This document shows positions 41,433 through 57,499 of a stretch of DNA of 64,000 bases, piece after piece. Location of the stretch: assembly GCA_963713975.1 (NCBI GenBank), contig OY970218.1, positions 640,001 to 704,000 on the forward strand, written 5' to 3'. The number at the start of each line of letters is the position of its first letter. Positions within the stretch are counted from its first letter, which is position 1. The notes beneath the pieces were generated by a model. The model made no database searches. It saw only the letters and a program-made list of their open reading frames with translations, and was not told the DNA's origin. Made by a program: the position numbers and the translations under genes. The DNA is from an uncultured Chloroflexia bacterium. Lineage in GTDB: Bacteria; Chloroflexota; Limnocylindria; Limnocylindrales; CSP1-4.

Positions 41433-41484
41433 TCCAGACCGTCGCGGCGTCACACCGGGCAGCTGCCGGCCGTTGGGTCCCGTG

Positions 41485-42693: not shown

Positions 42694-44508
42694 ATGAGCG
42701 AGCCCCGCGGCCTGCGCGATCTCAACCGCCTCAAGTGGGTGACGATCGTGCTGCCCATCGTCTTCGTCTGGGGCTTCGAGCTCGTCCGCTTCTTCGTGCT
42801 CGACCGGCAGTTCACGTCGGACGAGTCCCACGTCGCCGCCGCGCTCGTGCTCGGTGCGGCCATCGTCTTCTTCGCGATGCTCGTCTCGGTCTACCTGGAC
42901 CGCGCCCAGCGACATCTCGTATCCCAGAACAGGGACCTCACGGCGACCCATGCCGTCAGCTCCGCGGTCCGCGGGGGCCTCGCGCTGGATGACCTCCTGG
43001 AGCAGTCCCTGGAACAGGTGATCACGCAGACCGGCGCCCTCGCAGGGATTGTCACGGTCGCGGCCACGGACGGCCAGCCGATCGTCCACCGCAGGCCGGC
43101 GATGCCCGCGCCGGGCCTCTCGTGGCTCAGCCCGGTCCTCGATGAGGCACCGGATCCGGTCGTGCAGGCGCCGCGCTACTCGCGCCGGACCGGGATCGAC
43201 ACCGGCATCCTCGACCTGCCACTGGTCCGCGGCAGCCGGAGGATCGGCCACCTTCGACTGGTCTTCCACCCGCCCGTCGAGCCCGACATCTCGGACGCCG
43301 CCCTGGCCGACATCGCGGGCGAGATCGCCGGCGCCGCGCAGTTGGGCGTGACGGTCGCAGACCTCCACCGGCGAGAGCAGGAGCGCGAGGCGCTGTACGC
43401 CGTCGCCCTCCAGCTGACCGGGCGCACGGACCTGCCCGACGTGCTCGACTCGATCACGCAGCACGCCCGAGACCTGCTGGGAGCCGAGCGGGCCGTCGCG
43501 TGCCTGAGCGACCGTCGCGACGCAGCCGCCTCGAGGCCGGGCGCGATGCGGGAGCGCCTGGCCATGGCCGACGACGGCAGCGTGTGCCTGGTGGCCCACG
43601 AGAACGCGGGCGCCAACCATCCGCACAACCCCCTGTGCCCGCTGATCAACCTCGTGCCGGATTCGGCCTGGGCCGCCCGCCCCATGCGCGGGCCGGACGG
43701 GATCCTGGGCGAGCTGTGCGTCGTGCGTGCCGGTCGCCCGTTCACGCCAGCCGAGAGAACCCTGCTGGGAGCCCTCGCCGACATGGCGACGATTGCCGTC
43801 CGCCAGGCCCGACTTCACGAGGCCGAGGAGCAGTGGACAATTCACGCCGAGCGCGATCGGATCGCTCGCGAGCTCCATGACAGCCTGGCGCAGGTGCTGG
43901 GTGTCATCCACCTCCAGCTCCGGTCCCTGGAGGCGCGGGCCAAGGACGAGGCCAGCCTGGGCATCGCGGACGAGCTGTCCGCCCTGGCCGAGACGGCCGA
44001 CGAGGCTTACAGCGACGTCCGCGAGGCGATTCTGGGCCTGCGCGAGACCGTCCGCGAGGACGACGGCCTCGAAGGGTCGCTGCGGGAATACCTGCGCAAG
44101 TACAGCCGCCAGACCGGGATCGCAGCCGGCCTGACCTGCAACGGCGACACGCGGCGGGCGCTGAGCCCGCGCTCTGAGGTGCAGCTGCTGCGTGTCGTCC
44201 AGGAGGCCCTGACCAACACCCGCAAGCATGCCGGCGCGGGCCGGGTCGCCGTGACGATCGACTGCCGCGGGCCCGGGGTCACGCTCACGATCGAGGACGA
44301 TGGCGTAGGCTTCGATCCTTCGATCGTCGCCGGCTCCATGGAGGGAGGCTTTGGCCTTGCCTCGATGCGCGAACGCGTGGAGGCGATCGGCGGCAGCCTC
44401 GACGTGCAGACTGCCGCGAACCAGGGAACGACGATCATCGTCCGACTCGCCGTTGAGGACACCGTTGGGACACCTTCCGCCGAAGCTCCGGGTGCTGCTC
44501 GTCGATGA
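42694..44508 (+). CDS. GAF-domain sensor histidine kinase, HisKA_3 (NarX/DesK-like)
   Basis: Two TMs; GAF-like regions; ERDRIARELHDSLAQ; QEALTN.RKH, DDGVGF, GFGL.SMRER. Confidence 0.92.
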   Translation: MSEPRGLRDLNRLKWVTIVLPIVFVWGFELVRFFVLDRQFTSDESHVAAALVLGAAIVFFAMLVSVYLDRAQRHLVSQNRDLTATHAVSSAVRGGLALDDLLEQSLEQVITQTGALAGIVTVAATDGQPIVHRRPAMPAPGLSWLSPVLDEAPDPVVQAPRYSRRTGIDTGILDLPLVRGSRRIGHLRLVFHPPVEPDISDAALADIAGEIAGAAQLGVTVADLHRREQEREALYAVALQLTGRTDLPDVLDSITQHARDLLGAERAVACLSDRRDAAASRPGAMRERLAMADDGSVCLVAHENAGANHPHNPLCPLINLVPDSAWAARPMRGPDGILGELCVVRAGRPFTPAERTLLGALADMATIAVRQARLHEAEEQWTIHAERDRIARELHDSLAQVLGVIHLQLRSLEARAKDEASLGIADELSALAETADEAYSDVREAILGLRETVREDDGLEGSLREYLRKYSRQTGIAAGLTCNGDTRRALSPRSEVQLLRVVQEALTNTRKHAGAGRVAVTIDCRGPGVTLTIEDDGVGFDPSIVAGSMEGGFGLASMRERVEAIGGSLDVQTAANQGTTIIVRLAVEDTVGTPSAEAPGAARR

Positions 44509-45160
44509 CCAGCCGCTGTTCCGCAGGGCCCTCGCGACGCTGATCAGCGCCCAGTTCGACATGACGGTCGTCGGCGAGGGCGAGAACGGCTGCGACGCGC
44601 TCGAGAAGGTACGCGCCCTCCGGCCGGACCTCGTCGTCATGGACGTCAACATGCCGGTCGCCTCCGGGCCTGACGGCGTGCATGCCATCCGGTCGGCCGG
44701 CTTCACCACCCCGATCGTGATGCTCACGGTGTCCGAGGACGACGACGACCTGTTCGAGTCGATCAAGGCCGGCGCCAACGGCTACCTGCTCAAGAACGTG
44801 CGCCCCGAGCAGCTGTTCGAGGACATGCGCGGCGTCATGCGCGGCGAGGCCCCCATCGCCCCTGCCGTTGCCAGCAAGCTCCTCGAGGCACTGCGGACCG
44901 GCGGCATCCCCCCGCGGGGACAGGCCCAGGCGCCTGCGCCCGAGGACTCCGTGCTCACCCGGCGCGAGTCCGAGGTCCTCCAGCTCGTGGCCAGCGGGAT
45001 GTCCAACAAGGAGATCGCAAACGAGCTCACGATCACCGAGGGCACCGTCAAGAACCACGTCCACAACGCCCTCGAGAAGCTCCACCTGACCAACCGTGTG
45101 CAGGCCGCGGCCTACGCGGTCCGCCAGGGCTACGCGACCCCGGAGCCTCCTCGGGACTGA
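44465..45160 (+). CDS. NarL/LuxR-family response regulator
   Basis: VLLVDDQ, VVMDVNMP, AGANGYLLK, LTRRE.EVL.LVA.GMSNKEIA..L.ITEGTVKNH; TTG start after GAGG. Confidence 0.93.
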   Translation: MGHLPPKLRVLLVDDQPLFRRALATLISAQFDMTVVGEGENGCDALEKVRALRPDLVVMDVNMPVASGPDGVHAIRSAGFTTPIVMLTVSEDDDDLFESIKAGANGYLLKNVRPEQLFEDMRGVMRGEAPIAPAVASKLLEALRTGGIPPRGQAQAPAPEDSVLTRRESEVLQLVASGMSNKEIANELTITEGTVKNHVHNALEKLHLTNRVQAAAYAVRQGYATPEPPRD

Positions 45161-45493: not shown

Positions 45494-45539
45494 CAAGGCA
45501 CGGGTCGTGCCATGCAATTCGCGGAGAGGTGGGAGACCG

Positions 45540-45939: not shown

Positions 45940-46461
45940 ATGGGCAACCCTCCCCGCCGGCCCGATCCAGGCCAGGGATTTGATCCACGCGCCACGCCGC
46001 TTCCTCGTCGCCGCATGCTCGTGCTCATGGGCGTGGGGACGCTCGCTGCCTCGGGCGGCCTGGGTGCGCTCCTCGCCGGCTGCGCCGGGCCGCCCGTGAC
46101 GGTCACCCTCGATGTGGATCCGGAGTCCCTGACGGTGGGGCTCCCAACCGAGGTCCCGTTCACCCTGGCCCAGGGCGACTCGACCACGCCTGGTTCCACC
46201 TGGCTGGTCAGGAAGGCGAACGGGGACCTCATCTCGTACGACCCCCGTTGCACCCACGGCCTGTGCCGCTACAACTGGTACGAGACCGGGGCCCGCTTCA
46301 AGTGTCAATGCCACGAGGGCGAGTTCGCGCTGGACGGCGCCGTGTTGTCCGGTCCGCCACCGAGGCCCCTGGAGCGGTGGCCGGTGCGCGTGGTCGGCGA
46401 CACCATCGAGATCGACGTGCCCGGCGACTTCCGCACGCCCAAGGAGTCCCTCCCGGCCTGA
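45940..46461 (+). CDS. Rieske [2Fe-2S] protein with Tat/lipoprotein signal
   Basis: PRRRML, LAGC; CTHGLC and CQCHEG; GPPPRPL. Confidence 0.92.
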   Translation: MGNPPRRPDPGQGFDPRATPLPRRRMLVLMGVGTLAASGGLGALLAGCAGPPVTVTLDVDPESLTVGLPTEVPFTLAQGDSTTPGSTWLVRKANGDLISYDPRCTHGLCRYNWYETGARFKCQCHEGEFALDGAVLSGPPPRPLERWPVRVVGDTIEIDVPGDFRTPKESLPA

Positions 46462-46558
46462 GCGGGACCTCTGGCCCATCCATCCGGGCCCTCGACTGCC
46501 GCAGGATAGAGATCTTGCGGTGCGCACTGGCACCGCCCTGTATCCGACTTCTATCCCT

Positions 46559-46594
46559 CGACGGATGGGAACGAGCCCGCGCGCACGCGATCAT
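46559..46594 (+). promoter_or_regulatory. Box copy 3 (CGACGGATGGG) plus -10-like GATCAT
   Basis: Exact 11-mer at 46559-46569; hexamer at 46589-46594 (19-nt gap). Confidence 0.6.
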
Positions 46595-46648
46595 TGGCGA
46601 CAGGCCGGTCCGTCCGAATCCGCCGGCCGTGGAGTGAAGGTGCCAAGA

Positions 46649-47632
46649 ATGTCCCGGGTCACGTCCCTGACCAACATGCCGGAAGCGCAGCTGAACCGCT
46701 GGATCAGGCGGATCGCGCTCCTGTTCGTGGTCGTCCTCATCGCATTCGTCGCGTTCTACGCCATAGACCGCTTCCGTGCCCCAACCGCCCCGATCCTGGA
46801 TCGGGAGCTGGCCGCGCTCGAGGAGGCTGTCCGGACCGACCCCACCGACCTCGCATCGCGGGGCAGGCTCGCAGACCTCTACCTGGCGTCGAGCCGCTAC
46901 GACGAGGCCATCGCCCAGTACACCGAGATCATCGGGACCGGGAAGCAGGACGAGGCCGGATACGTGAGCCGCGGACGGGCCTACGAGATCAAGGGAGACC
47001 TGGACGCGGCCGCGGCCGACTACGCGAAGGTCGTCGAGATCGCATCGCCCAATGAGATGGCCAACGTGGACCCGATGCTGCAGACGTCGTACTACGGGCT
47101 CGGCGCCATCGCCCTGCAGCAGGAGAAGCCAACCGAGGCGATCGACAACCTGCTGAAGGCGCTGGCCATCAAGCGGACCGATGCCGACGCGATGAACCTG
47201 CTGGGCGCGGCCTACGTGAAGGCGGGCACGCCCGAGAAGGCGCTCCAGCCCCTCCGCCAGGCCGTCCTGTTCGTGCCGATCGGCTGGCCGGACCCGTACC
47301 AGTCGCTCGCCGCCGCGTATACGGCGACCGGCGACACCGACCTGGCCGAGTGGGCCAATGCGATGGTCGCCGGGCAGACGGGTGACGTCGCCGGTGCCGT
47401 CGAGCGCCTCGAGGCGATCGCGGACGGCGAGGCAGCGCTCGACGCGCGCATCGGCCTCGGGCTCCTTGCGGAGAGCGAGGGCGAGGGCACGACGGCCGCC
47501 ACCTGGTACCGCAAGGCTCTCGAGCTCGACGCCGAGAGCAAGCCCGCGCAGCTCGGCCTGAGCCGCGTATCCGACGGCACGCAGGCCCACCCCGACATCG
47601 CACCGTCGGCCAGCCCCGAAGGAAGCAACTGA
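46649..47632 (+). CDS. Membrane-anchored TPR protein
   Basis: One N-terminal TM; repeated LA..Y....YDEA...Y and A...LG..Y...G....A TPR patterns; start uncertain (46649 or 46676). Confidence 0.85.
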   Translation: MSRVTSLTNMPEAQLNRWIRRIALLFVVVLIAFVAFYAIDRFRAPTAPILDRELAALEEAVRTDPTDLASRGRLADLYLASSRYDEAIAQYTEIIGTGKQDEAGYVSRGRAYEIKGDLDAAAADYAKVVEIASPNEMANVDPMLQTSYYGLGAIALQQEKPTEAIDNLLKALAIKRTDADAMNLLGAAYVKAGTPEKALQPLRQAVLFVPIGWPDPYQSLAAAYTATGDTDLAEWANAMVAGQTGDVAGAVERLEAIADGEAALDARIGLGLLAESEGEGTTAATWYRKALELDAESKPAQLGLSRVSDGTQAHPDIAPSASPEGSN

Positions 47633-48714
47633 TGACCGCGTCCCCCTCCGCGGCCCAGCCAGTGGCGGGCTCGCAACCAATTCCTGAAGGTGACGGACTG
47701 CCGCCCAATGGCCTCACGCCAACGGACGCCGAGGAGGTCCCCCCGGAGAACCGGCGGCGGAAGCTGCTGCTGCTCCTGCTGCTGCTGGGGGCATTCATCG
47801 CCCTGCTCGGCCTGGCGATCTGGTACCTGCTGTTCCGCCAGCCCATCCCGGTCCCGATGATCCCCGGCCAGGCCGTCATGCCCAGCTACGTTACGTCGAT
47901 CTATGGCGCGTCTCGCCCGATGAGCGTCGCCACCACCGGCGCCGGCGAGCGCGTGTACATCGGCGAGACGTCCGGCGAGCAGACGGCCAAGCTGTTCGAT
48001 GCCCAGGGCAACCAGGTGGCGGCCCTGGTGCCGCCCCTGTCCACCGGCGCCGATCACGTGCCGGTCTACGTGGCGGTCAACCCGACCAACGGAGAGGTCT
48101 ACGTCTCCGACCGACCCACGGCCACCATCTACATCTACGATGCGGCGGGAACGTACCTGCGGGCGTTCCCGACGCCCTCCGGTACCGACGGCTGGCAGCC
48201 GTTGGGCGTGGGGTTCGACCCGGCCGGCAACATGTTCGTCACCGACATCGGCTCCACCCCGCAGGTCATCCGCGAGTTCGATCCGACCGGCCAGCAGATC
48301 CGGATCTTCGGTGAGGACGCCGGCCTAAGCTTTCCCAACGGGGTCGCCGTCGACGACGCCGGCTATGCGTACGTGACCGACAGCAACAACGGTCGCCTGC
48401 TCGTCTTCGCGCCGGACGGGAGCGTCGTCGCCACCGTCAGCCGCGGCAGCGGCTCGGGCAACCTCGGCCTGCCACGCGGGGTTGCCGTCGATGGCCAGGG
48501 TCGCGTGTACGTCGTGGACACGAGCGGCCAGGGGGTCTTCGTGTACGGACAGTACAAGGAAGGCGCGGACGGCCTCGAATTCCTGGGCTCCTTCGGATCA
48601 CAAGGTGTCTCCGACGGAGCGTTTTCCTACCCCAACGGCATCTCGGTGGACGACCGGGGGCGGCTCTACGTCGCCGACTCGGGCAACGACCGGGTGCAGT
48701 TGTGGAGCTACTGA
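47632..48714 (+). CDS. Membrane-anchored NHL-repeat beta-propeller protein
   Basis: One TM; FPNGVAVD..G.YVTDS.N.R, LPRGVAVD..GRVYVVD, YPNGISVD..GRLYVADSGN.RVQ. Confidence 0.9.
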   Translation: MTASPSAAQPVAGSQPIPEGDGLPPNGLTPTDAEEVPPENRRRKLLLLLLLLGAFIALLGLAIWYLLFRQPIPVPMIPGQAVMPSYVTSIYGASRPMSVATTGAGERVYIGETSGEQTAKLFDAQGNQVAALVPPLSTGADHVPVYVAVNPTNGEVYVSDRPTATIYIYDAAGTYLRAFPTPSGTDGWQPLGVGFDPAGNMFVTDIGSTPQVIREFDPTGQQIRIFGEDAGLSFPNGVAVDDAGYAYVTDSNNGRLLVFAPDGSVVATVSRGSGSGNLGLPRGVAVDGQGRVYVVDTSGQGVFVYGQYKEGADGLEFLGSFGSQGVSDGAFSYPNGISVDDRGRLYVADSGNDRVQLWSY

Positions 48715-48819
48715 TCTGAGGCCAACAAGGGAGGTGTGAACCGAGGCTCCTGCGTCGCCGCCCGGACAGGCGGCCCATGTCCAAGTCCACGTAGCACAGA
48801 GAAAGGAGGTGAGGACAGT

Positions 48820-50040
48820 TTGAAAAGACTCATGCTGCTGATCGCGGCTGGAAGTCTCTGGCTGTTCCTTGCCGCGGTCCCCGTCTTTGCCGACGGCGGC
48901 CCGCATGTTGCTGCGGTGAACAGCGGCGTCAACGGCGTGAATGCCGACAGTTGCGCCGGCTGCCACCAAGCCCACCGCGCGCAGGGCGAGTTCCTTCTCA
49001 TCGAGGAGTCGGGAACCGCACTGTGCCTCAGCTGCCACGGCGCCACGGGCCTCGGCGCGACAACAGATGTCGAGTCGGGCGTCCAGTACGCGCTGGGCAC
49101 CACCGACGTTCGCGGGGGAGCCGTCCTCGGCTATCTCCGTGGCGGCGGCTTCGTGAATGCCCGGATCGGCTCTGCCGAGACGGTCCGCATCGCGTACTAC
49201 CGGACAGCTACCGCCATCAGCCAGAACGCCAAGGTCCCGGTCCGAACGGCCGGTTCTCAGGCGGTCACCTCCGCCCACCTGCCGAACACCAACGGCGTGG
49301 TCGGAGCGGCCGACGGCGTTGCCTGGGGCAACGGCCCCAACTCCCTGACGGCGTACGCCGGGCCCGAGGTTGACCTCGAGTGCGGCACGTGCCACAACCC
49401 GCACGGCAACGGCCAGTATCGGATTCTCAATCCGATCCCGGCTCCGGCGGCAACGAGCACGGACGTCTTCGTTCCGGCGGCTGCCGGCGTTTCCGTCACC
49501 GACGCGGCGCTCCCGCCCGCCGGCGACACCCGCAACTACTCCATCATCCAGACCAACGGCGGCGCCGGCACGCTCCTCGCGAGCCAGGTGAGCGCTCTCG
49601 CCCTGCCGGCGACGGCAGGCGACTACTTCCGGCGCAAGGTTCCGTGGAACGGCACAGCCGGCACGTCCAACGACGCGCCGAACGGCATCTCCGCGTCCTT
49701 CGCCACGCAGATCTCGACCTGGTGCACCACGTGCCACAGCCGGTATCTGAGCCAGGGGTGGGACGTCGAGGAAGCGGACGCGATCTTCAAGTATCGCCAT
49801 ACTTCCATCAACGCGTCGCGGAACTGCATCACGTGCCACGTGTCGCATGGCTCCAACGCGCAGATGACGGGCACCTACTCCGCGAACATGGAGAACCCGG
49901 GCGGGGCCGTGGCCCCGGTCGGCGACAGCCGCCTCCTCAAGATCGACAACCGTGGCACCTGCCAGGCTTGTCACGATCCCACGGGGACGATCATCCCGCC
50001 GACGCAGGTCGGCCCGACGCCGAACCCGGTTCTTCCGTAA
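48820..50040 (+). CDS. Secreted hexaheme c-type cytochrome, OmcS-like
   Basis: TTG after AAAGGAGGTGA; signal peptide ending VFA; six CxxCH (CAGCH, CLSCH, CGTCH, CTTCH, CITCH, CQACH). Confidence 0.9.
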   Translation: MKRLMLLIAAGSLWLFLAAVPVFADGGPHVAAVNSGVNGVNADSCAGCHQAHRAQGEFLLIEESGTALCLSCHGATGLGATTDVESGVQYALGTTDVRGGAVLGYLRGGGFVNARIGSAETVRIAYYRTATAISQNAKVPVRTAGSQAVTSAHLPNTNGVVGAADGVAWGNGPNSLTAYAGPEVDLECGTCHNPHGNGQYRILNPIPAPAATSTDVFVPAAAGVSVTDAALPPAGDTRNYSIIQTNGGAGTLLASQVSALALPATAGDYFRRKVPWNGTAGTSNDAPNGISASFATQISTWCTTCHSRYLSQGWDVEEADAIFKYRHTSINASRNCITCHVSHGSNAQMTGTYSANMENPGGAVAPVGDSRLLKIDNRGTCQACHDPTGTIIPPTQVGPTPNPVLP

Positions 50041-50242
50041 CTGCACCAAAGCGCGTGGTGGCCGGCGACGAGCGTCCCGGCCACCCGCAACCTCCCAGGG
50101 GCGTGCGCTCCGCCGACGGGTCGTCAACGATCGCTTGACGCCTCCTCCGCGCAGCTCCCGCCACGTCACACTGCAGGATCGATCGGTCAGCCTCCGCCAC
50201 GGGTGAACGTCCAACACTCGCCATGACGAACAACGCGCCAGC

Positions 50243-52600
50243 ATGAACCACCAGCCGCGACCGGCAAGCCGAAGGGCCGGGCCCCTGTTCGGCGTGCTCC
50301 TCGTCATCGCGGGCGCGGTGGGAGCGCTGACCCCCGCCGTGCCGACCGCACGTGCCCAGGATCCCACGCCCGCGCCCGCGGTCGACCCGACGCCGGAGCC
50401 CACAGCTGAGCCCACGGCGGTGCCGACCCCCGAGCCCACCGCGGAACCGACGGCGGAACCGACACCCGAACCCACCGTGGGACCAACCGCCGAACCATCC
50501 GCGGGGCCGACGACCGAGCCATCCGGAGACCCCCAGCCGTCCGAGGAACCGTCAGGTGACCCCGTGCCGTCGGTTGAACCCTCGGTGGAGCCGTCCGTCG
50601 AGCCTTCGGTAGAGCCCTCCGCGGAACCGTCCGCGACTCCCGGGCCCGCTTCGCCGCGGGTTGAGCATGCCTGGGTCGATACCGTCGATCAGGCCGGCGC
50701 CGTGACCGATCCGGGCACGCTTGACACGCCACTTGAAGGCGCGCAGCGCTTCACCGTCTACTGGGTCCGGTTCCAGCTCGTGAACGACTCCGACACCGAC
50801 GCCACCATCAAAGCCGTCCTGGAGCTCTCCGGTGGCTCCGGCGCGTGGACGAACCTGCCGATGGTCGACCCGGATCCCGGCACGGCCTTCTATGGCGCCT
50901 CCGACGACGGCCGCGTCTACGATCCTCGCCGGGCGCCGATCAGCGTCACGGATCTTCGCCTGGACCAGACCGCAGACCCGCTTGCAGCTCCCGTGCAGGG
51001 CGAGTCAAGCGCCGGACGGGATCTCACGGCCATCGAGCTGCCGGCCCACAGCTTCACCGAGGTCGAGCTTGCCGTTCGGGCCACCGCGGACGCGGACTGG
51101 GGGACGGGGTACCGGTTCCGCCTCGCCGATGGCTCCGCGCCGCTTCCAGGGGTCAATGCCGAGCTCGTCATGGGCGCCAAGCCCGCCCTCGAGCTGTCAC
51201 CCGGCCAGCGCAAGGGCAAGCCCGTGGCTGATCCGGTCCCGCTCTACAAGCTCGACCCCACGATCGGCCTGACCGACATGCCCATCGCCACGGGCACGGG
51301 CACCGCCATCACGGCGACCTATGCCCTGCGCACGCCGGTGGCGGCCGTCGCCACCGAGGGCTCACCGCACGTCATCTCGGGGCTGGCGTCCGACACGTGC
51401 GCCTCCTGCCATGCGACCCACGATGCGCAGGGATCCATGCTGCTCCAGCAACCCGGCACGCAGTCATCGACGTGCTTCACCTGCCATGACGGCACGGGTG
51501 CACTGAGCGACGTCCAGAGCGAATGGTCCAGTTCGTCGCTGCCGGCGAACGACCCCACGACGTCGTCCTACTACTCCCATCCGGCTACGACACCCTCGGA
51601 CCACACGTCGGCCCAGGCCAACGAGTTCGAGGGCACCTTCAACCGGCACACCGCCTGTGCGGATTGCCACCAGCCGCATCTCGCCGACGCGGGACGGCCC
51701 GTGAACAGCGTCGGCGGCTGGTCGGCCTCGGGCTCCATCGCCGGCGCGTCCGGCGTCGCGGTGGTCAACGGCGCCGCCGGCGAGGCACCTGCCTACACGC
51801 TCCAGCAGACCTCGGACTTCGAGTACCAGCTCTGCTACAAGTGCCACTCGGGCTTCACGGAGCTGCCCGCACAGGACCCCGCCCACCCGAGCCGCTGGTC
51901 GCTCGACAAGGGCATCGAGCTGAACCCGGCCAACGTCTCGTATCACCCGATCGAGGCCGCGGGCAAGAACCAGACGAACGCGATGACCCTGAGCCTCGCC
52001 GGCACGTCCCCCTACAAGCTGTGGAACTTCGAGACCCAGGACACGGTCCGCTGCCAGAACTGCCACGGTGATCCCTCGGCGACAACCCAGGTCCCCAAGC
52101 CGGCCGCGAACGCGAGCCTGGACAATCACGCTTCCGAGAACCGCGGAATCCTGATCGCCCCGTACAAGGACCGGACCCTCAATGCTCGGGGGCTGTACCA
52201 GGCCCAGAACTTTGCCCTCTGCTACGTCTGCCATGCCGAGGCGGCGATGGTGGACGACAGCGCCGATCCGCGTGCCGACTCGAACTTCAACTGGCACGGC
52301 TACCACATGAACAACATCTCCGGCAACGGGCTCGGCGGCCTGGACATCGACGTCCCCGGCGCCGGACCCGGCAATGCCACCTGTGCCGAGTGCCACTTCC
52401 GGACCCACAGCTCCGCGCTCGCAGTCAACGGCCAGACGCCACAGCCGGGACTGGTCAACTTCGCGCCAAACGTCCAGAAGCTGGGCGGCGTCCTGGAGTT
52501 CGTGCCGGCCACGCCGACCACCCTCGGGTCCTGCACGATGGTCTGCCACGGCAAGGCCCACAACAACTACGGCTACGGGAACGACGACCTGGTGCCCTGA
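50243..52600 (+). CDS. Secreted multiheme cytochrome c (7 CxxCH + 1 CxxxCH) with Pro/Thr/Glu linker
   Basis: Signal peptide ending ARA; PT/EP repeats; CASCH, CFTCH, CADCH, CYKCH, CQNCH, CYVCH, CAECH, CTMVCH. Confidence 0.92.
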   Translation: MNHQPRPASRRAGPLFGVLLVIAGAVGALTPAVPTARAQDPTPAPAVDPTPEPTAEPTAVPTPEPTAEPTAEPTPEPTVGPTAEPSAGPTTEPSGDPQPSEEPSGDPVPSVEPSVEPSVEPSVEPSAEPSATPGPASPRVEHAWVDTVDQAGAVTDPGTLDTPLEGAQRFTVYWVRFQLVNDSDTDATIKAVLELSGGSGAWTNLPMVDPDPGTAFYGASDDGRVYDPRRAPISVTDLRLDQTADPLAAPVQGESSAGRDLTAIELPAHSFTEVELAVRATADADWGTGYRFRLADGSAPLPGVNAELVMGAKPALELSPGQRKGKPVADPVPLYKLDPTIGLTDMPIATGTGTAITATYALRTPVAAVATEGSPHVISGLASDTCASCHATHDAQGSMLLQQPGTQSSTCFTCHDGTGALSDVQSEWSSSSLPANDPTTSSYYSHPATTPSDHTSAQANEFEGTFNRHTACADCHQPHLADAGRPVNSVGGWSASGSIAGASGVAVVNGAAGEAPAYTLQQTSDFEYQLCYKCHSGFTELPAQDPAHPSRWSLDKGIELNPANVSYHPIEAAGKNQTNAMTLSLAGTSPYKLWNFETQDTVRCQNCHGDPSATTQVPKPAANASLDNHASENRGILIAPYKDRTLNARGLYQAQNFALCYVCHAEAAMVDDSADPRADSNFNWHGYHMNNISGNGLGGLDIDVPGAGPGNATCAECHFRTHSSALAVNGQTPQPGLVNFAPNVQKLGGVLEFVPATPTTLGSCTMVCHGKAHNNYGYGNDDLVP
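50385..50640 (+). repeat. Degenerate 12-nt tandem repeats encoding (EPTA/EPTP/EPSV)n linker
   Basis: PTPEPTAEPTAVPTPEPTAEPTAEPTPEP...EPSVEPSVEPSVEPSAEPS; boundaries approximate. Confidence 0.8.
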
Positions 52601-52752: not shown

Positions 52753-52860
52753 TCCCTCAGGTGTCAAGCCGCGACCCCTGCGGCTCCAAGATGAGGGATC
52801 CACGATGGTTCGCACCCCTGCGCGCAACGAGGGTTGTGCGCGTCCCCGGGGAGGGCTCGC

Positions 52861-54345
52861 ATGAGCACCCGGACGCCCCGGCCCAAGGGTCAGGCGGCCG
52901 CGGAGACGGAGCTGCTGGCCCAGCTCGGCCTCCCGGCAAGCGCCTCACCCGAGGACGTCGACCAGCTCCACCAGGCCGTGAGCGACTACCTCTCCAGTGC
53001 GCCCCCCGAGATCCGCGGCTGGGCTCGTGCCCAGGTCGCGGCGATCGACGCGGCGTACATCCATTTGACCGACCCGGCTGGACTCGAGGGCTCGGCCCTC
53101 AGGAGTCCGGCGAGTCCGCCCGTGGTCGTACCCGGCGGGCCGGCGACACCTCCGGCCCGTCGGGGCCCCGACTCGGAGGCCACACCTGTGGCCTCCGAGG
53201 AGGCGGTCCGCGCGGACACGGGCGCCGACCCCGGCGCGACCGACCCCCAGGGCGAGCCGGACGCGGAGGACCTCGCGGCCCTCTACGCGATGGTGACGCC
53301 CAGCGCGCATGACGACATGAAGCCCGATGTCAAGCGGGCCAAGGCCGCGCCTGCGCCGCCCCCAGGCCTGGCCACGGATGCCGCCCCGTCCGCCGTGACG
53401 CCGGCCCAGACCGGGCCCAACATGTGGAAGCGGATCGTGATCGGCGGCGTGGGGATCGCAGCGGTGGTCGCCATCGCCTTCGGCGCCAACGCCATCGTCA
53501 ACGGCACGCCGGCGGACGCCAACCCGGGCACCGAAGGCGCAGCCCAGGCATCGCCGACGCCCCCGGCAATCGACGAGGCCAAGGTCGCGGACCTGATGGC
53601 CAAGTTCCAGGCCGATCCGAACGACGCCGTGACGCTCCTCGCCCTCGCCGACGAGTTCTATGCGGGCGGGGAGTACGAGACGTCCGGGACGTGGCTGGAC
53701 AGGCTCCTGGCCCTCAAGCCGGACGACATCCAGGGCCTGCTCGCACGCGGCGCCGTGTACTTCAACCTCAACGACCTGCCCAACGCCGAGGCGACGTGGA
53801 AGAAGGTCGCCGTCCTGGAGCCCGACAACGTCGAGGTCCACTACGACCTGGGCTTCCTCTACCTGAACCAGGCCGAGCCCGACTGGACCGGTGTCCAGGC
53901 AGAGTGGCTCCAGGTCATCGAGCTCGACCCGGGCTCGCAGCTGGCCCAGACCGTGCGATCGCATCTGGACTCGCTGGCCCAGAACTCCCTGGTACCGGAC
54001 CTGCCCGACGCCAGCGGCACCGCGCCGTCGGCCGCCCCGGCAGCCTCGCCCTCCGCGTCACCTGCGGCGAACGTGCTCAACCAGACGGCGCTCAACCTCG
54101 CCTACGGCACGCCACAGCTGTCCGCTCCGGCTGACACGCCGCTGACCATCCGCTTCGACAACCAGGACAGCCTCCCGCACGACATCGTGATCAAGGACGC
54201 ATCCGGCGCCGAGGTCTTCACGGGCGTCCTGATCACGGGCCCCAAGGCCATCGACTACGCGGTCCCGGCGCTGAAGGCCGGTGCCTACACGTTCCTCTGC
54301 TCGATCCACCCGAACATGACGGGCACCCTGACGGTGGGTGGCTGA
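52861..54345 (+). CDS. J-domain-like / TM / TPR / cupredoxin fusion protein
   Basis: LGLPASASPEDV...IDAAY..LTDP; one TM; three TPR-like repeats; PHDIV...YTFLCSIHPNMTGTLTV type-1 Cu motif. Confidence 0.8.
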   Translation: MSTRTPRPKGQAAAETELLAQLGLPASASPEDVDQLHQAVSDYLSSAPPEIRGWARAQVAAIDAAYIHLTDPAGLEGSALRSPASPPVVVPGGPATPPARRGPDSEATPVASEEAVRADTGADPGATDPQGEPDAEDLAALYAMVTPSAHDDMKPDVKRAKAAPAPPPGLATDAAPSAVTPAQTGPNMWKRIVIGGVGIAAVVAIAFGANAIVNGTPADANPGTEGAAQASPTPPAIDEAKVADLMAKFQADPNDAVTLLALADEFYAGGEYETSGTWLDRLLALKPDDIQGLLARGAVYFNLNDLPNAEATWKKVAVLEPDNVEVHYDLGFLYLNQAEPDWTGVQAEWLQVIELDPGSQLAQTVRSHLDSLAQNSLVPDLPDASGTAPSAAPAASPSASPAANVLNQTALNLAYGTPQLSAPADTPLTIRFDNQDSLPHDIVIKDASGAEVFTGVLITGPKAIDYAVPALKAGAYTFLCSIHPNMTGTLTVGG

Positions 54346-55117
54346 CGCCATGATCGAGCTCGGAAGCGCGCTCGGCATCGGGATCGCCTTCATGGGCGGC
54401 CTGCTGTCGTTCGCCTCCCCCTGCTGCCTGCCGCTGGTGCCGGCATACATCTCCTACATGGTGGGCGCGACCGGTGAGGGCACCGCCGGTCGTCGCCCGG
54501 CCTTCCTGCACGGGCTCGCCTTCGTCGCCGGCTTCTCGCTCGTGTTCGTGGCCTTCTACGCCGCGATCGGCGTGCTGGGCACGTTCATCGATCGCCGGGT
54601 GATGACCATGCTCGGCGGTGCGCTGCTGGTCTTCATGGGCCTCCAGGTCGCCGGCGTCATCAACATCCGGGCGCTGTGGCGGGACACCCGCTCGATGCCG
54701 ACCATCGGCGGCGGCCTGGTCATGGCCGGCGGCACGGGCCCGATGGGCTCCCTCGCCGGGAGCGCGGGATCCGATACCCCCCGCTACCCGCGCTCGTTCA
54801 TCTTCGGCCTGCTGTTCGCCGCGGGCTGGAGCCCGTGCATCGGTCCGATTCTCGGCGGCATCCTGGGCCTGGCCACCGTGACCTCGAGCGTCGCGCAGGG
54901 CACGGTCCTGCTGATCGCCTACGCGGCCGGGCTCGCCATCCCCTTCCTCGCGGTGGCGCTCGGCGCCTCGTGGGTGTCCCAGCGGCTGACCTGGGTTGGC
55001 CGCCACCACCACGCCATCTCCCTGGTCACGGGCGGGTTGCTCGTGCTCCTGGGCGTGCTGATGCTCACCAACACACTCGGACGGCTGGCCGCGCTCGGCA
55101 CGCCGTTCGGGATCTGA
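54338..55117 (+). CDS. ccdA: Cytochrome c biogenesis thiol-disulfide transporter
   Basis: GGLLSFASPCCLPLVPAY, FAAGWSPCIGPILG, YAAGLAIPF. Confidence 0.93.
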   Translation: MADAMIELGSALGIGIAFMGGLLSFASPCCLPLVPAYISYMVGATGEGTAGRRPAFLHGLAFVAGFSLVFVAFYAAIGVLGTFIDRRVMTMLGGALLVFMGLQVAGVINIRALWRDTRSMPTIGGGLVMAGGTGPMGSLAGSAGSDTPRYPRSFIFGLLFAAGWSPCIGPILGGILGLATVTSSVAQGTVLLIAYAAGLAIPFLAVALGASWVSQRLTWVGRHHHAISLVTGGLLVLLGVLMLTNTLGRLAALGTPFGI

Positions 55118-55131
55118 GGAGGTCGCCTGAC

Positions 55132-56604
55132 ATGACCCACGAGGTCAACAGCCGGCCGCTCCCCCCGGCTGGCGCCAATGCCCCGGGCACGGCGGCCCAC
55201 CCTTCCGCCATGGATCGGGTCGACGGCGGACTGGAAGGGCTCTGGCACTTCCTGACGTCCATGCGCGTGGCGATGATCCTGATGCTCGCCATCGCCGCCC
55301 TGGGCGTGTTCGGATCCCTGTTGATCCAGGCTCCGTCGGCCGTCCTGACCGATGCCGCGGCCAAGGCCGAGTGGATTGACAGCGTCCGGCCCCGCTACGG
55401 CGGCTGGACCAACATCCTGGACACCCTCCAGCTGTTCGAGGTCTTCAACTCGATCCTGTTCCGGATCCTGGTCGCGGCACTGACGATCAGCCTGATCGCC
55501 TGCTCCATCCACCGGATCCCGGGGATCGTGCGCACGACCAGGAAGCCCCGTGTGGACGTGGGGCCGGCGTTCTTCGAGCACGCGCCACAGCACGAGGCCA
55601 TCGTGGTCCGGCGCTCCGCCGCCGAGACCCGGTCCATCGTGGAGGGCGTGCTGAAGGCTCACCGCTACCGGACGCTGATGGTCGATGACGGGACGGTCCA
55701 CCTGTACGCGGACCGCTTCCGCTGGGCGCCCGTCGCGGGTCTCGTGGGCCACCTCTCGCTGGTGGTGATCCTGGCCGGCGCGATCATCGGCGGGATGTTC
55801 GGCTATCGCGACTCCGAGTTCACGCTGGCCGAGGGGCAAACGCTGCCGGTCGCTGCCGACCCGGGCCTCACGATCGAGCTCATCGATTTCACCGACAAGT
55901 ACGACACCACCAGCGGCGCTCCCATCGACTACGCCAGCCAGGTGATCCTGTTCAAGGACGGCCAGGAGATCGACCGCCACACGATCCGGGTCAATGACCC
56001 GCTGCGCTACAACGGGACGACCTTCTACCAGGCCTTCTTCGGTGCCGCCGTGACGATGACCGTCGCGGACGCCGCGGGCAACGTGCTGGTGCAGTCCGAG
56101 GGCGTCCCGCTCTCCTGGCGCACCAACGATGAGAACCGGCCGATCGGCTCGTTCGCCATCCCGGGCACCACCTACGTAGGCTGGGTGAGCGGAACCATGG
56201 GCGGTGGCGACACCACGGTCAAGCCCGGCCAGGCGGCCGTCGCCCTGTACACGTCCGGCGAGGGCACGCTCGTGGCCGACACGGTCCTCGACCAGGGCAA
56301 GCCCGCCACCGTCGGCGACCTCACGGTCACCTTCGAGCGCGAAAGCCAGTTCACCGGCCTGAACGTCGCTCGGGACCCGGGCGTCATGATCGTCTGGGTC
56401 GGCGCCATCATGCTGTTCTTCGGCTTCCTGATCCGGTTCACCGTCCCGCACAAGCGGATCTGGGGCCGCATCGTCGCCCGACCCAACGGCGGCACGGTGC
56501 TGGGCATGGCGACGCTCACCCAGAAGGACGTCACCAAGGGAACCGATTTCGAGAACCTTGTCAACGACATCCGCACGGCGCTCCAGGCGCCTGCGCAGGC
56601 CTGA
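55132..56604 (+). CDS. resB: Cytochrome c biogenesis protein ResB (System II)
   Basis: FLTSMR.A..L, GSLLIQ, SLIACS, GHLSL, IRVNDPLRY.G..FYQ, RDPG; GAGGAGG RBS. Confidence 0.9.
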   Translation: MTHEVNSRPLPPAGANAPGTAAHPSAMDRVDGGLEGLWHFLTSMRVAMILMLAIAALGVFGSLLIQAPSAVLTDAAAKAEWIDSVRPRYGGWTNILDTLQLFEVFNSILFRILVAALTISLIACSIHRIPGIVRTTRKPRVDVGPAFFEHAPQHEAIVVRRSAAETRSIVEGVLKAHRYRTLMVDDGTVHLYADRFRWAPVAGLVGHLSLVVILAGAIIGGMFGYRDSEFTLAEGQTLPVAADPGLTIELIDFTDKYDTTSGAPIDYASQVILFKDGQEIDRHTIRVNDPLRYNGTTFYQAFFGAAVTMTVADAAGNVLVQSEGVPLSWRTNDENRPIGSFAIPGTTYVGWVSGTMGGGDTTVKPGQAAVALYTSGEGTLVADTVLDQGKPATVGDLTVTFERESQFTGLNVARDPGVMIVWVGAIMLFFGFLIRFTVPHKRIWGRIVARPNGGTVLGMATLTQKDVTKGTDFENLVNDIRTALQAPAQA

Positions 56605-56617
56605 GGGAGGTCCCACC

Positions 56618-57499
56618 ATGGGCAAGCTTTCGGAGTACATGTTCGTCGCGTCGATCCTGGCCACCGCGCTGGCCATCCTGTTCTACGTGCTGTATGCCCT
56701 CTCGGGGCTCCGCGCCGCACGGATGCAGACGGCGGGCATGCCGGCCACGAGCAGCGTGGGCATGATCTCCGGCCCGCGCACCGCCGCCATGGGCCGCTAC
56801 GCCACGATGCTCACGTGGCTGGCAACCCTGGCCCTGCTCGCGAGCCTGGTGCTGCGCACCATCGTGACCGGCCACGGTCCGTTCGCCAACATGTACGAGT
56901 TCTCGATGGCGTTCGCCTTCGGGATCCTGGTCGCCTACCTCTACTTCGAGCGGAAGTACCACCAGCGCGTCCTGGCGCTTGTCGCCCTGCCGGTCGCCCT
57001 CGGCATGCTGCTGTACGCCTCCACCATCCCGTCCGACATCGAGCCTCTGGTCCCGGCGCTCCAGAACAACCTCCTGCTCACCGTCCACGTCGCCACCGCG
57101 ATCGTCGCCTACGGCTCGTTCGCGATCGCATTCGCTGCCTCGGTGCTCTACCTGGCCCAGCCCGAGGGCGGCCGCTGGGGCCTGCCCAAGCCGCAGGTGC
57201 TCGACGAGATCGGGTATCGCGCGGTGGTCGTGGGCTTCCCCTTCCTGACCCTCACGATCATCCTGGGCGCCGTCTGGGCCGAGACCGCGTGGGGCCGGTA
57301 CTGGAGCTGGGACCCCAAGGAGACTGCCTCCCTCGTGACCTGGCTGATCTACGGGGCCTACCTCCACGCCCGCGTGATGCGCGGCTGGCGCGGCCGGCGC
57401 GCTGCGGTCCTTCTCGTGGTGGGCTTCGGGGCCACGCTGTTCACCTACTTCGGCAACCTCATCTTCGGCGGGCTCCACAGCTACTCCGGCCTGGGCTGA
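56618..57499 (+). CDS. ccsA: Cytochrome c synthase CcsA/ResC
   Basis: GHGPFANMYEF, PLVPALQ, HV, GAVWA..AWGRYWSWDPKET, YLH, GLHSY. Confidence 0.95.
   Translation: MGKLSEYMFVASILATALAILFYVLYALSGLRAARMQTAGMPATSSVGMISGPRTAAMGRYATMLTWLATLALLASLVLRTIVTGHGPFANMYEFSMAFAFGILVAYLYFERKYHQRVLALVALPVALGMLLYASTIPSDIEPLVPALQNNLLLTVHVATAIVAYGSFAIAFAASVLYLAQPEGGRWGLPKPQVLDEIGYRAVVVGFPFLTLTIILGAVWAETAWGRYWSWDPKETASLVTWLIYGAYLHARVMRGWRGRRAAVLLVVGFGATLFTYFGNLIFGGLHSYSGLG

Follow-up and report, generated by a model that had tools for sequence, protein, structure and literature searches.

A secreted hexahaem cytochrome with distant similarity to OmcS in a conserved, probably cell-envelope, electron-transfer gene cluster of Limnocylindria-type Chloroflexota

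Introduction

To the best of our knowledge, solved structures of cytochrome nanowires are limited to those of Geobacter with its relatives and of a few archaea, and for bacteria without an outer membrane we know of only a homology model of such a wire, that of CwcA. According to the published structural account of OmcS of Geobacter sulfurreducens, 11 axial haem ligands are supplied within a subunit and a further one, to haem 5, by its neighbour. GSU2505, an NHL protein whose gene adjoins omcS, has been suggested to aid OmcS assembly or expression, and an osc (omcS-companion) cluster is described as supplying secretion (porin-like OscEFG) and folding (OscH) genes. OmcS has paralogues, OmcT, OmcJ and GSU2501, for which wire formation is not known. 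CwcA of Thermincola is described as a hexahaem protein with 18% identity to OmcS that was insoluble on expression and was modelled as a wall-spanning polymer.

Here we describe a hexahaem c-type cytochrome gene, named MHC6, from an uncultured Chloroflexia bacterium of the Limnocylindria. It lies in a 64,000-nucleotide stretch of DNA (contig OY970218.1, positions 640,001 to 704,000) that we refer to as the window; all coordinates are those of the window, and every feature given lies on its forward (+) strand. A first-pass annotation had read the product as a divergent OmcS-family protein and a possible polymerising nanowire subunit. On balance we favour the reading that MHC6 is a secreted hexahaem protein, distantly related to OmcS, that serves as an OmcS/CwcA-like electron relay within an envelope pathway of a bacterium presumed to have a single membrane. 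A literature search of partial paper coverage, with supplements outside its reach, found no paper on the MHC6 family or on its cluster in Limnocylindria.

Results

The MHC6 gene (48820..50040) runs from a TTG codon at 48820 to a stop codon at 50038-50040 and encodes 406 aa with six CxxCH motifs, 12 Cys and 12 His. The TTG start is supported by close homologues, which begin M(K/R)(K/R)L(M/A/T)LL. The near-perfect ribosome-binding site claimed by the first-pass annotation was read directly as the Shine-Dalgarno-like AAAGGAGGTGA at 48802..48812, 7 nt upstream of the TTG, and its description of a secreted protein of about 406 aa with six CxxCH agrees with the reading frame and with a signal-peptide-like N-terminus (aa 1-24, MKRLMLLIAAGSLWLFLAAVPVFA; 48820..48891), of which residues 2-18 are helical in the structure model. 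Directly after the ...VPVFA that ends this segment comes DGGPH (aa 25-29; 48892..48906), and A24-D25-G26-G27-P28-H29 is invariant in an alignment of close homologues. We infer signal cleavage before D25, which would leave the conserved H29, a candidate distal haem ligand from the alignments, at the predicted mature N-terminus. On the other side of the gene, 13 nt past the stop codon, lies a G+C-rich hairpin without a U tract (50053..50088). The 80-nt fold here has an energy of -38.7 kcal/mol (z -1.92, with 6 of 200 shuffles equally stable), a consensus terminator scan found none at the hairpin, and a promoter and terminator scan around the gene gave nothing useful; the fold faintly hints at a possible mRNA-end or stabiliser element.

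The first residues of the six CxxCH motifs are 45, 69, 188, 302, 336 and 381. Motif 1 with its trailing histidine, CAGCHQAH (aa 45-52; 48952..48975), places H52 in line with the histidine of OmcS CEGCHTMH, which we take to be the inter-subunit ligand His16, and motif 2, CLSCH (aa 69-73; 49024..49038), was read from the sequence. Motif 3, CGTCHNPH (aa 188-195; 49381..49404), is followed by YRIL and aligns with OmcS HCSSCHDPHG; motif 4, CTTCH (aa 302-306; 49723..49737), is preceded by W301 and aligns with WCANCH; and motif 5, CITCHVSH (aa 336-343; 49825..49848), aligns with NCLSCHRAH. The landmarks listed in the first-pass annotation are all present in MHC6: DGGPH, CAGCHQAH, LL, CLSCH, GGGF, LECGTCHNPHG..YRIL, ISTWCTTCH..YRH, NCITCHVSHGS and RGTCQACH. 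Its placement of the last motif at the C-terminus has to be corrected, in that CQACH (aa 381-385; 49960..49974) is followed by 21 further residues, a Pro-rich tail ending in ...GPTPNPVLP with Pro as the last residue.

All 12 cysteines fall within CxxCH, and the 12 histidines comprise the six of the motifs together with H29, H52, H153, H195, H327 and H343, each of these being invariant or conserved at 90% or more in three alignments (37, 24 and 101 sequences). A total of exactly 12 Cys and 12 His for six CxxCH fits six bis-His haems, and from this composition all six haems of MHC6 are probably bis-His ligated.

The MHC6 pattern is more than chance, being conserved in 1384 proteins at E<=1e-3. 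At 50% identity the family falls into 1622 clusters, whose members come from Chloroflexota (Limnocylindria) and Actinomycetota, and its Actinomycetota-type branch alone holds at least 2483 proteins; databases that name these proteins do so generically, as 'cytochrome c3 family protein' or 'predicted CXXCH cytochrome family protein'. Exactly six CxxCH were found in 109 of the 149 family representatives listed and more than six in none, and the 109 carry the [AG][DN]xG..H plus CxxCHxxH head in 103 cases. None of these 109 has fewer than 12 His, and among the representatives listed many homologues hold 13-19. Open reading frames at the loci related to this one gave a similar picture: of 95 with six CxxCH, 93 have AD[GNA]GxH plus CxxCHxxH and 80 the terminal Pro, the same head module stands at the start of 46 of 51 with seven CxxCH, and at 27 of 67 loci the hexahaem copies are in tandem, two or three together. 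In a language-model atlas the nearest neighbours of MHC6 include a Bacillota cluster of 339 aa (score 0.94), which we record only as an indirect lead towards CwcA.

Pfam Paired_CXXCH_1 matched MHC6 at 5.2e-20 (71.3 bits against a curated cut-off of 20.6) and NCBIfam paired-CXXCH (TIGR01905) at 54.6 bits (cut-off 25.2), with further Pfam matches to Cytochrome_C7, Cytochrom_c3_2 and MtrC/MtrF II-IV. The DmsE/MtrA-family decahaem model (TIGR03508) reached 41.7 bits against a cut-off of 192.2, on residues 42-80 only, and NCBIfam NrfB matched partially on the same residues 42-80. As a control of specificity, the MHC6 family HMMs were run at E<=1000 against all 32,064 six-frame ORFs of the bacterium's own genome, where they matched only MHC6 and its neighbour MHC785 (51.3 bits), and found nothing in the five other frames with 5-27 CxxCH.

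The gene is present in 18 of 24 further congeneric genomes and was found in none of 16 genomes of about 1.1 Mb from a sister family, a distribution that fits an accessory, habitat-linked function. On the same counts (the gene was not found in the 6 other congeneric or in any of the 16 small sister-family genomes, several of these being incomplete) we rejected a role for MHC6 as a core respiratory-complex subunit.

Similarity to OmcS was sought with profiles of increasing size. With the single MHC6 sequence no OmcS was returned from the PDB at E<=10, nor was it found with a 37-sequence profile. A 24-sequence profile gave OmcS as the second-best PDB match (E 9.5e-5), a 44-sequence profile gave it as second-best again (E 1.7e-6) in one stretch (profile 54-312 against OmcS 8-337), and a 101-sequence profile gave OmcS (6ef8) as the top match at E 1.4e-6 and 30.9 bits, colinear over haems 1-5. 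The last alignment pairs profile 54-87 with OmcS 8-56 and profile 186-326 with OmcS 133-339, with the CxxCHxxH histidines in line. The OmcS landmarks given in the first-pass annotation (LL..CLNCH, GGDF, LHCSSCHDPHG, YRIL, MSEWCANCH, LRH, NCLSCHRAHAS and RALCNKCH) are indeed present in the 6ef8_A stretches printed by HMMER. MtrA (6r2q_A) was the top or a near-top PDB match with all four profiles of 37, 24, 101 and 44 sequences, at E 1.7e-5, 2.2e-6 and 4.4e-8 for the last three, and since it scores about equal to OmcS or better, much of the OmcS profile signal is that of a generic paired-CXXCH module. The MtrA matches, however, are repeated local matches of one such module of 35-45 residues and are not colinear over MHC6, whereas an in-order alignment over five haem sites and some 330 residues was obtained with OmcS only (101- and 44-sequence profiles). 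Aligned identities between MHC6 and OmcS sit mainly in the extended neighbourhoods of the haem motifs; HMMER did not align haem 6 or the N-terminal histidine colinearly, and the haem 4-5 and 5-6 spacings are 34 and 45 residues in MHC6 versus about 88 and 72, as read from the alignment, in OmcS. OmcE and an OmcE-like chain were matched through the head module at E 1.1e-4 to 1.2e-3 with the 24-, 101- and 44-sequence profiles.

An AlphaFold model of MHC6 has a pLDDT of 89.1, with values of 42-68 at residues 21-50 against 90 or more elsewhere; an AlphaFold2 model built with the shallow 37-sequence alignment (pLDDT 43.9) was set aside. Regular secondary structure covers about 79 of the 382 mature residues of the model, and for OmcS the published text gives about 100 of 407 residues. 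A Foldseek comparison of the model with the PDB, one of the checks proposed by the first-pass annotation, returned 0 matches at E<=0.001 (best E 3.2), with OmcS and any other cytochrome absent from the 60 PDB matches listed. Foldseek looks insensitive for coil-rich proteins modelled without haem, since MtrA, found by sequence profile, was also missed. Co-folding of two mature copies with four haems (four of the twelve) gave a score of 0.14 (mark 0.42), which we count neither for nor against binding. The first-pass reading of MHC6 as a divergent OmcS-family protein is partly supported, as far as distant profile similarity and gene context go: the deep-profile match, the colinearity of haems 1-5 and an upstream NHL gene argue for it, and the searches with single sequence and shallow profile, the equal or better scores of MtrA, the gathering of identities near the haem motifs and the Foldseek result argue against it.

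MHC6 lies within a block of genes conserved in 77 loci and composed of a TPR protein, an NHL propeller, the hexahaem, an octahaem paralogue, a TPR-cupredoxin protein and System II; the same block occurs at two loci labelled Actinomycetota. Upstream are a sensor kinase and LuxR-type response regulator pair (42694..45160), named from translations only and syntenic in 53/77 loci, and a small Rieske [2Fe-2S] protein (45940..46461; Pfam Rieske 1.7e-8; 48/77 loci) whose sequence shows a twin-arginine-like signal as well as a lipobox-like ..LLAGC. These are followed by a membrane-anchored TPR protein (46520..47632, likely start ATG 46649; Pfam TPR families; 66/77 loci), whose stop is overlapped by the start of a membrane-anchored NHL-repeat beta-propeller protein (47632..48714; Pfam NHL 7.8e-26), the gene directly upstream of MHC6 and found in the same position in 71/77 loci.

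Downstream of MHC6 lies the gene for MHC785 (50243..52600; 76/77 loci), a 785-aa cytochrome recognised by Pfam, BLASTP and the family HMM. Its layout is a signal, a PT-rich linker, a domain of about 230 aa for which no Pfam family match was found, and a cytochrome domain with seven CxxCH and one CxxxCH that opens with an MHC6-type head module (EGSPH..CASCHATH..LL..CFTCHDGTGA..DV). It matches MHC6 by BLASTP at 3e-8 in colinear segments and, as judged from these alignments, is a divergent octahaem paralogue of it. Then come a membrane-anchored TPR plus cupredoxin protein with a type-1 copper-like C..H....M site (52834..54345; Pfam TPR_11 and Cupredoxin_1 9.6e-10; 64/77 loci) and the System II cytochrome c maturation genes identified by Pfam (54338..57499), namely CcdA (54338-55117; DsbD_TM; 51/77 loci), ResB (about 55132-56604; ResB 1.6e-72; 54/77 loci) and ResC/CcsA (56558-57499; Cytochrom_C_asm 5.8e-48). 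Further downstream is a 568-aa membrane-anchored decahaem with ten CxxCH and a NapC/NirT-type N-terminal region (58122..59828; Pfam Cytochrom_NNT 1.6e-10); ORFs with 10 CxxCH occur at 13 of the 77 related loci, and the flanks of the 77 often end before the decahaem position. A Pfam scan of 17 window ORFs revealed nothing resembling a porin and no peptidyl-prolyl isomerase domain, so that the gene content here does not match the Geobacter osc cluster; a porin is unexpected in a bacterium without an outer membrane.

Discussion

These data lead us to view MHC6 as the conserved centre of a set of electron-transfer genes in Limnocylindria-type Chloroflexota whose products would act outside the cytoplasmic membrane. 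In the route that we propose, the membrane-anchored NapC/NirT-like decahaem, a candidate link, would exchange electrons with the quinol pool, MHC6 would move them through the cell envelope along a linear chain of haems, and MHC785, held out on its Pro/Thr-rich linker, may serve as the outer partner. The TPR and NHL-propeller proteins, both membrane-anchored, are candidates for a role in assembly or scaffolding, and the products of the adjacent System II genes would attach the haems.

An alternative view is that MHC6 is a generic paired-CXXCH multihaem cytochrome, a soluble or tethered shuttle outside the membrane that resembles OmcS through its motifs or by convergence and is no closer to it than to cytochromes of the MtrA, DmsE or NrfB type. 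The rank of MtrA in the four profile searches would suit such a protein, as would the partial DmsE-family and NrfB matches on residues 42-80, the matching of OmcE and the OmcE-like chain through the same head module, and the failure of both the Foldseek comparison and the single sequence to recover OmcS. We nevertheless regard it as unlikely, given that OmcS alone aligns in order over five haem sites, that the hexahaem count, similar length, low regular secondary structure and NHL neighbour match OmcS and not MtrA, and that the NCBIfam decahaem score falls far below its cut-off. MHC6 may also polymerise head to tail, a head histidine (H52 or H29) completing a haem of the next subunit, to give a wire through the wall and beyond on one end of which MHC785 would dock by its own head module. 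MHC6, like OmcS, has exactly 2n histidines for n haems; a role of H52 as inter-subunit ligand is consistent with its alignment; and AD(G/N)GPH, at the mature N-terminus, hardly varies (93/95 ORFs) yet is the least confident part of the monomer model. The head shared by MHC785 and the seven-CxxCH ORFs fits the 'anchor cytochrome' idea discussed for OmcE; NHL propeller genes are found with omcS and beta-propeller lipoproteins with omcE clusters, and a polymer has been proposed for CwcA. Weighing against a wire, the paired-CXXCH modules of MtrA hold equivalent histidines (NGSHH..CASCHQVH in the alignment), and we know of no filaments formed by MtrA; many homologues exceed 12 histidines; and OmcS was missing from the Foldseek matches. 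Nor does resemblance to the OmcS family predict polymerisation, since OmcT, OmcJ and GSU2501 are not known as wires. We hold polymerisation of MHC6 into wires to be possible but doubtful.

Electrons might also travel the other way, with the cluster oxidising Fe(II), Mn(II) or reduced humics outside the cell and the cytochromes handing the electrons inward, first to the cupredoxin or Rieske protein and from there to an oxidase. The membrane-anchored cupredoxin and the Rieske lipoprotein are conserved in the block, and as high-potential carriers they make electron uptake or an aerobic chain fit as well as export; record titles moreover place aerobic soil and water MAGs within the lineage and label the source of one related locus a manganese-related sample. 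Bis-His haems are usually of low potential, which counts against uptake, as do the NapC/NirT-type quinol dehydrogenase, of a kind that typically serves export to acceptors in the periplasm or outside the cell, and the absence of a Cyc2-type or other known oxidase component among the window ORFs scanned. The direction of electron flow is not readable from sequence, and we consider uptake improbable. Far more remote is a catalytic multihaem enzyme of the nitrite, hydroxylamine, sulfite or tetrathionate reductase/oxidase type, which we rejected. Multihaem enzymes of similar size do exist, and there is weak partial similarity to NrfH/NrfB; however, no open coordination site is expected in MHC6, since a conserved His stands as candidate distal ligand for each haem, and spare or variant motifs are lacking. 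CxxCK, Tyr-crosslink and Lys-ligand signatures are absent from MHC6, and NrfA, HAO and octahaem enzymes gave no PDB match at E<=1 with the 101- and 44-sequence profiles.

The relay reading, if true, has consequences beyond this genome. The MHC6 family sits in abundant, mostly uncultured lineages of soil, aquifer and sediment, and extracellular electron transfer may be far commoner in soil Chloroflexota and Actinomycetota than marker sets suggest, which would hold for MHC6 monomers and even more for wires. The conserved cluster of TPR protein, NHL propeller, hexahaem, octahaem, cupredoxin, System II and decahaem forms a compact, testable module, and alignment together with the confident model singles out H29, H52 and the C-terminal Pro tail as residues for mutation. 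Although speculative, and in our estimate more doubtful again than polymerisation as such, a wider proposal can be put forward in which Limnocylindria of soil and sediment, and perhaps many Actinomycetota, build OmcS-type wires without an outer membrane: H52 or H29 would complete haem 5 of the neighbour in the chain, assembly of the polymer would fall to the TPR and NHL proteins, the NapC/NirT-like decahaem would feed it, and MHC785 would cap or terminate it with the same head module on its Pro/Thr-rich stalk. The MHC6 profile also reaches OmcE-type filament cytochromes, and a head module of common ancestry could therefore underlie both OmcS-like and OmcE-like wires.

Among known systems, OmcS (GSU2504; 6EF8/6NEF) resembles MHC6 in being secreted, about 400 aa long and endowed with six CxxCH, in having 2n histidines for all-His ligation (predicted from sequence for MHC6), and in the motif order CxxCHxxH; LL..CLxCH; [L]xCxSCHxPHG..YRIL; WCxxCH; NCxxCHxAHxS; R..CxxCH. 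MHC6 differs in its 21-aa Pro-rich C-terminal tail, its conserved AD(G/N)GPH N-terminus and its haem 4-5 and 5-6 spacings, and its cluster adds cupredoxin, Rieske protein and System II genes while no outer-membrane porin gene was seen in it. Chloroflexota, the host phylum, are usually described as single-membrane, unlike the host of OmcS. Both proteins are of mostly irregular structure (for MHC6, in the model), an NHL-repeat gene adjoins both genes, and paralogues stand in tandem in both settings (omcS-omcT-GSU2501 in Geobacter, hexahaem copies at MHC6 loci). MtrA/DmsE-type decahaems and NrfB share with MHC6 the module xH..CxxCHxxH..(20-25 aa)..CxxCH (PF09699/TIGR01905); they carry ten or five haems to the six of MHC6, in whose cluster no porin partner was seen. 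OmcE (7TFS) and the OmcE-like chain share the head module, a His close to the mature N-terminus and then CxxCHxxH; OmcE, like OmcS, is described as having one haem ligated from the neighbouring subunit and a gene cluster with beta-propeller genes. It is a tetrahaem protein of about 230 aa, and its likeness to MHC6 is limited to the head and tail modules.

CwcA (Tfer_0075 / TherJR_1122), a comparison we draw from its published description, is by that account hexahaem, bis-His, distantly OmcS-like and hosted by a bacterium without an outer membrane. The partners and phyla differ, the nonahaem OcwA accompanying CwcA and an octahaem paralogue with a PT linker accompanying MHC6. CwcA has been proposed, in the same source, to carry electrons through the wall, possibly as a polymer, linking a decahaem of the membrane or periplasm with a cytochrome at the surface, and it is this pathway logic that MHC6 would follow in Limnocylindria.

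The hexahaem gene and its product

The hexahaem gene occupies window positions 48820-50040 (+), where a TTG start, with AAAGGAGGTGA 7 nt 5' of it (48802-48812), opens a reading frame for a product of 406 aa. The N-terminus of this protein is the signal-peptide-like stretch MKRLMLLIAAGSLWLFLAAVPVFA, followed directly by DGGPH, and six CxxCH motifs begin at residues 45, 69, 188, 302, 336 and 381. We found exactly 12 Cys, every one within a CxxCH, and exactly 12 His, namely the six motif His plus H29, H52, H153, H195, H327 and H343, the latter all being invariant or at least 90% conserved in family alignments of 37, 24 and 101 sequences. The first-pass annotation had described the protein as a divergent OmcS-family member and possible polymerising nanowire subunit, and all of the landmarks it listed are present in the 406-aa sequence; only its placement of the last CxxCH at the C-terminus needs amending, in that 21 residues come after this motif. 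Pfam and NCBIfam assigned the paired-CXXCH domain family above curated cut-offs, and there were local matches to cytochrome c7, c3 and MtrC/MtrF-domain families and a partial DmsE-type decahaem match far under its cut-off. A G+C-rich hairpin without a U tract lies 13 nt past the stop codon (50053-50088; z -1.92, with 6 of 200 shuffles equally stable), and could allow the mRNA of the hexahaem gene and that of the octahaem gene following it to differ in level.

Similarity to OmcS in sequence and predicted structure

Neither the single hexahaem sequence (at E<=10) nor the shallow family profile A1 (37 sequences) matched OmcS in the PDB. OmcS appeared, with improving E values, with broader profiles: at 9.5e-5 with A2 (24 sequences), at 1.4e-6 (30.9 bits) with A3 (101 sequences), where it was the best match of 177,635 distinct sequences, and at 1.7e-6 with A4 (44 sequences). 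A3 positions 54-87 were aligned with OmcS 8-56 (haems 1 and 2, including CxxCHxxH and LL..CLxCH) and 186-326 with OmcS 133-339 (haems 3, 4 and 5), while A4 aligned as a single stretch (54-312 with OmcS 8-337). The OmcS stretches in these HMMER alignments also bear out the OmcS landmarks that the first-pass annotation had quoted. In the complete set of 32,064 six-frame ORFs of the host genome, searched at E<=1000, the A3 and A4 HMMs matched only the hexahaem and its 785-aa neighbour. The five other frames that contain between 5 and 27 CxxCH gave no match, indicating that the family profile is not a general detector of multihaem cytochromes. The same genome encodes, outside the window, a very haem-dense 679-aa frame with 27 CxxCH (C1:2126027-2128063, +), which gave no match to the family HMM; further frames at C1:1992846-1993583, 1995839-1996942 and 2708740-2709765 have 5, 6 and 7 CxxCH, respectively.

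Three observations count against a simple OmcS reading. MtrA (6r2q_A) equalled or beat the OmcS score (1.7e-5, 2.2e-6 and 4.4e-8 with A2, A3 and A4), through one module of 35-45 residues repeated locally in a non-colinear manner; the N-terminal head module (xH..CxxCHxxH..CxxCH) was also matched in OmcE (7tfs) and the OmcE-like 16-chain entry 9yuq_N by A2-A4; and identities with OmcS are largely confined to extended haem-motif neighbourhoods. One hexahaem family profile reaches OmcS, OmcE, 9yuq_N and MtrA, always via the head module; in the literature, OmcS and OmcE are described as having no recognisable sequence similarity. The family might form a bridge between OmcS and OmcE, or the head module may simply be generic.

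A confident AlphaFold2 model built from the 101-sequence alignment (mean pLDDT 89.1, pTM 0.85) is largely irregular: the helices and strands listed for it take up about 79 of the 382 residues of the mature protein. For OmcS, roughly 100 of 407 residues are described in the literature as regular secondary structure. Model confidence is lowest in the strictly conserved head (residues 21-50, pLDDT 42-68). A Foldseek search of the PDB with this model returned nothing at E<=0.001 and no cytochrome among 60 listed entries, so that this structural test of OmcS membership failed. This negative is weak evidence, since MtrA, which is detected by the sequence profile, escaped Foldseek as well. The proposed OmcS-family assignment is supported at the level of deep-profile similarity (A2-A4) and gene context; the single sequence, A1 and Foldseek lend it no support.

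Family size, branches and distribution

Of 8000 candidates scored in a protein search, 1384 were relatives at E<=1e-3. The top 120 of these are 57-100% identical to the hexahaem and, where named, are a 'cytochrome c3 family protein' or 'predicted CXXCH cytochrome family protein' of Limnocylindrales or Chloroflexota MAGs. Searching 1.84 billion cluster representatives with a profile produced 1622 matches at E<=1e-3 (849 at E<=1e-10, 362 at E<=1e-30). Among 149 listed representatives, 109 contain exactly six CxxCH and none contains more, the remainder being mostly fragment-like; all 109 possess at least 12 His, and 103 carry a head of the form [AG][DN]xG..H followed by CxxCHxxH. The haem 3-to-4 segment ranges from 61 to 458 residues across the listed representatives, and many hexahaem paralogues have 13-19 His instead of 12. 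A Limnocylindria-type branch is marked by ADGGPH and a Pro-rich tail with a terminal Pro. In a second branch of at least 2483 proteins (E<=1e-5) the head reads ADNGPH and the chain stops 2-3 residues past the last CxxCH; only three organism labels occur among the 120 listed, all of them Actinobacteria or Actinomycetes MAGs.

Of 24 further genomes in this genus, 18 have the gene and in six it was not found, and no family match (E<=1e-10) was obtained in 16 sister-family genomes of the same order (G025-G040, about 1.1 Mb; 1.0-1.4 Mb), several genomes in this survey being incomplete. Such patchy presence fits an accessory, habitat-linked role better than one in core respiration.

A conserved gene cluster

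The host genome is a 3.62-Mb single contig of 70.8% G+C, of which the window covers bases 640001-704000. On the same (+) strand, 5' of the hexahaem gene, lie genes for a sensor kinase and response regulator, a small Rieske lipoprotein, a membrane-anchored TPR protein and an NHL propeller that is likewise anchored in the membrane, the start of the NHL gene overlapping the stop of the TPR gene. On the 3' side follow the 785-aa octahaem (50243-52600), a membrane-anchored TPR-cupredoxin, the System II proteins CcdA, ResB and ResC, and a NapC/NirT-like decahaem of 568 aa that has a single membrane anchor, all (+). A 159-aa ORF without a Pfam match (45450-45929, +) sits between the regulator and Rieske genes and is syntenic in 56 of 77 related loci. 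Further 5', ahead of the two-component system, 38452-41432 (+) holds a NuoF-like gene (Complex1_51K, 2Fe-2S thioredoxin-like) and a NuoG/formate-dehydrogenase-like iron-sulfur gene (Fer2_4, Molybdop_Fe4S4), after which comes an endonuclease/exonuclease/phosphatase family gene (41473-42540).

The octahaem consists of a signal peptide, a long Pro/Thr/Glu-rich linker (Pfam PT repeat, aa 40-130), a domain of about 230 aa that matched no Pfam family, and a cytochrome domain, its haem motifs being seven CxxCH and one CxxxCH (CTMVCH, aa 764-769). This last domain opens with the hexahaem's head module and aligns with the hexahaem in colinear segments (BLASTP 3e-8; family HMM 51.3 bits), which identifies it by sequence as a divergent paralogue.

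Gene order is conserved across these 77 loci (labelled as MAGs of Chloroflexota type in 75 cases and as Actinomycetota in 2), with the octahaem in 76, NHL in 71, TPR in 66, TPR-cupredoxin in 64, ResB in 54, kinase and regulator in 53 each, CcdA in 51 and Rieske in 48, counts that are minima because contig ends truncate many loci. The head was found as AD[GNA]GxH plus CxxCHxxH in 93 of 95 six-CxxCH ORFs, and as xH plus CxxCHxxH in 46 of 51 seven-CxxCH ORFs. Two to three tandem hexahaem copies occur in 27 of the 67 loci having a complete six-CxxCH ORF (L020, L024-L026, L031-L035, L039, L043, L044, L046, L048-L050, L054, L058-L060, L063, L064 and others). Counting the window together with L001-L077, a terminal Pro, usually preceded by a hydrophobic residue, ends 80 of 95 six-CxxCH and 19 of 51 seven-CxxCH ORFs (..VLP in the window's hexahaem, ..LVP in its octahaem), and 24 of the 51 end in Tyr; the Pro ending is not a sorting signal of the sortase or hydrophobic type.

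Proposed role and comparison with known systems

We consider it reasonably probable that the hexahaem is a distant OmcS/CwcA-like, all-bis-His cytochrome that relays electrons through the cell envelope, within a conserved module outside the cytoplasmic membrane. This route would have the NapC/NirT-like decahaem at one end and the octahaem paralogue at the other, and the TPR and NHL proteins probably help in assembly or serve as scaffolds. Given the cluster's cupredoxin and Rieske proteins, electron uptake stays alive as an alternative to export, albeit an unlikely one.

That the hexahaem polymerises into a wire seems doubtful, if somewhat less so than uptake. The idea draws on its exactly 2n histidines, on the alignment of H52 with the His of OmcS CEGCHTMH, on a head that is invariant yet poorly modelled, and on an octahaem paralogue that shares this head and could cap a polymer. 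Against it stand the Foldseek result and the presence of the same module in MtrA, which is not known to form filaments. OmcS paralogues without known polymerisation also argue against a wire: within the omcS/omcT/GSU2501 group it is known for OmcS only, according to published accounts. These also describe 12 axial ligands in OmcS, all His, 11 from within the subunit and one (haem 5) donated by its neighbour, an inter-subunit arrangement used by OmcS and OmcE but not by OmcZ.

A search of openly accessible literature, including passages on multihaem cytochromes in a Chloroflexi genomics preprint, returned no account of either the family or the cluster from Limnocylindria. The system here is an OmcS/CwcA-like hexahaem accompanied by a conserved gene set of its own, with no porin seen among the 17 window ORFs scanned with Pfam, and it belongs to abundant, uncultured lineages of soil and sediment. 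[quoted passage not shown] The Gram-positive Thermincola encodes the hexahaem CwcA (18% identity to OmcS, insoluble on expression), modelled in the same accounts as a peptidoglycan-spanning polymer that links a decahaem to the surface cytochrome OcwA. A Bacillota cluster among the hexahaem's nearest neighbours in a language-model atlas is the sole hint of homology to CwcA. Compared by description, the CwcA pathway and the window cluster share a membrane decahaem, an OmcS-like hexahaem and a larger outer cytochrome, whereas the latter has different partners and also includes a cupredoxin and a Rieske protein.
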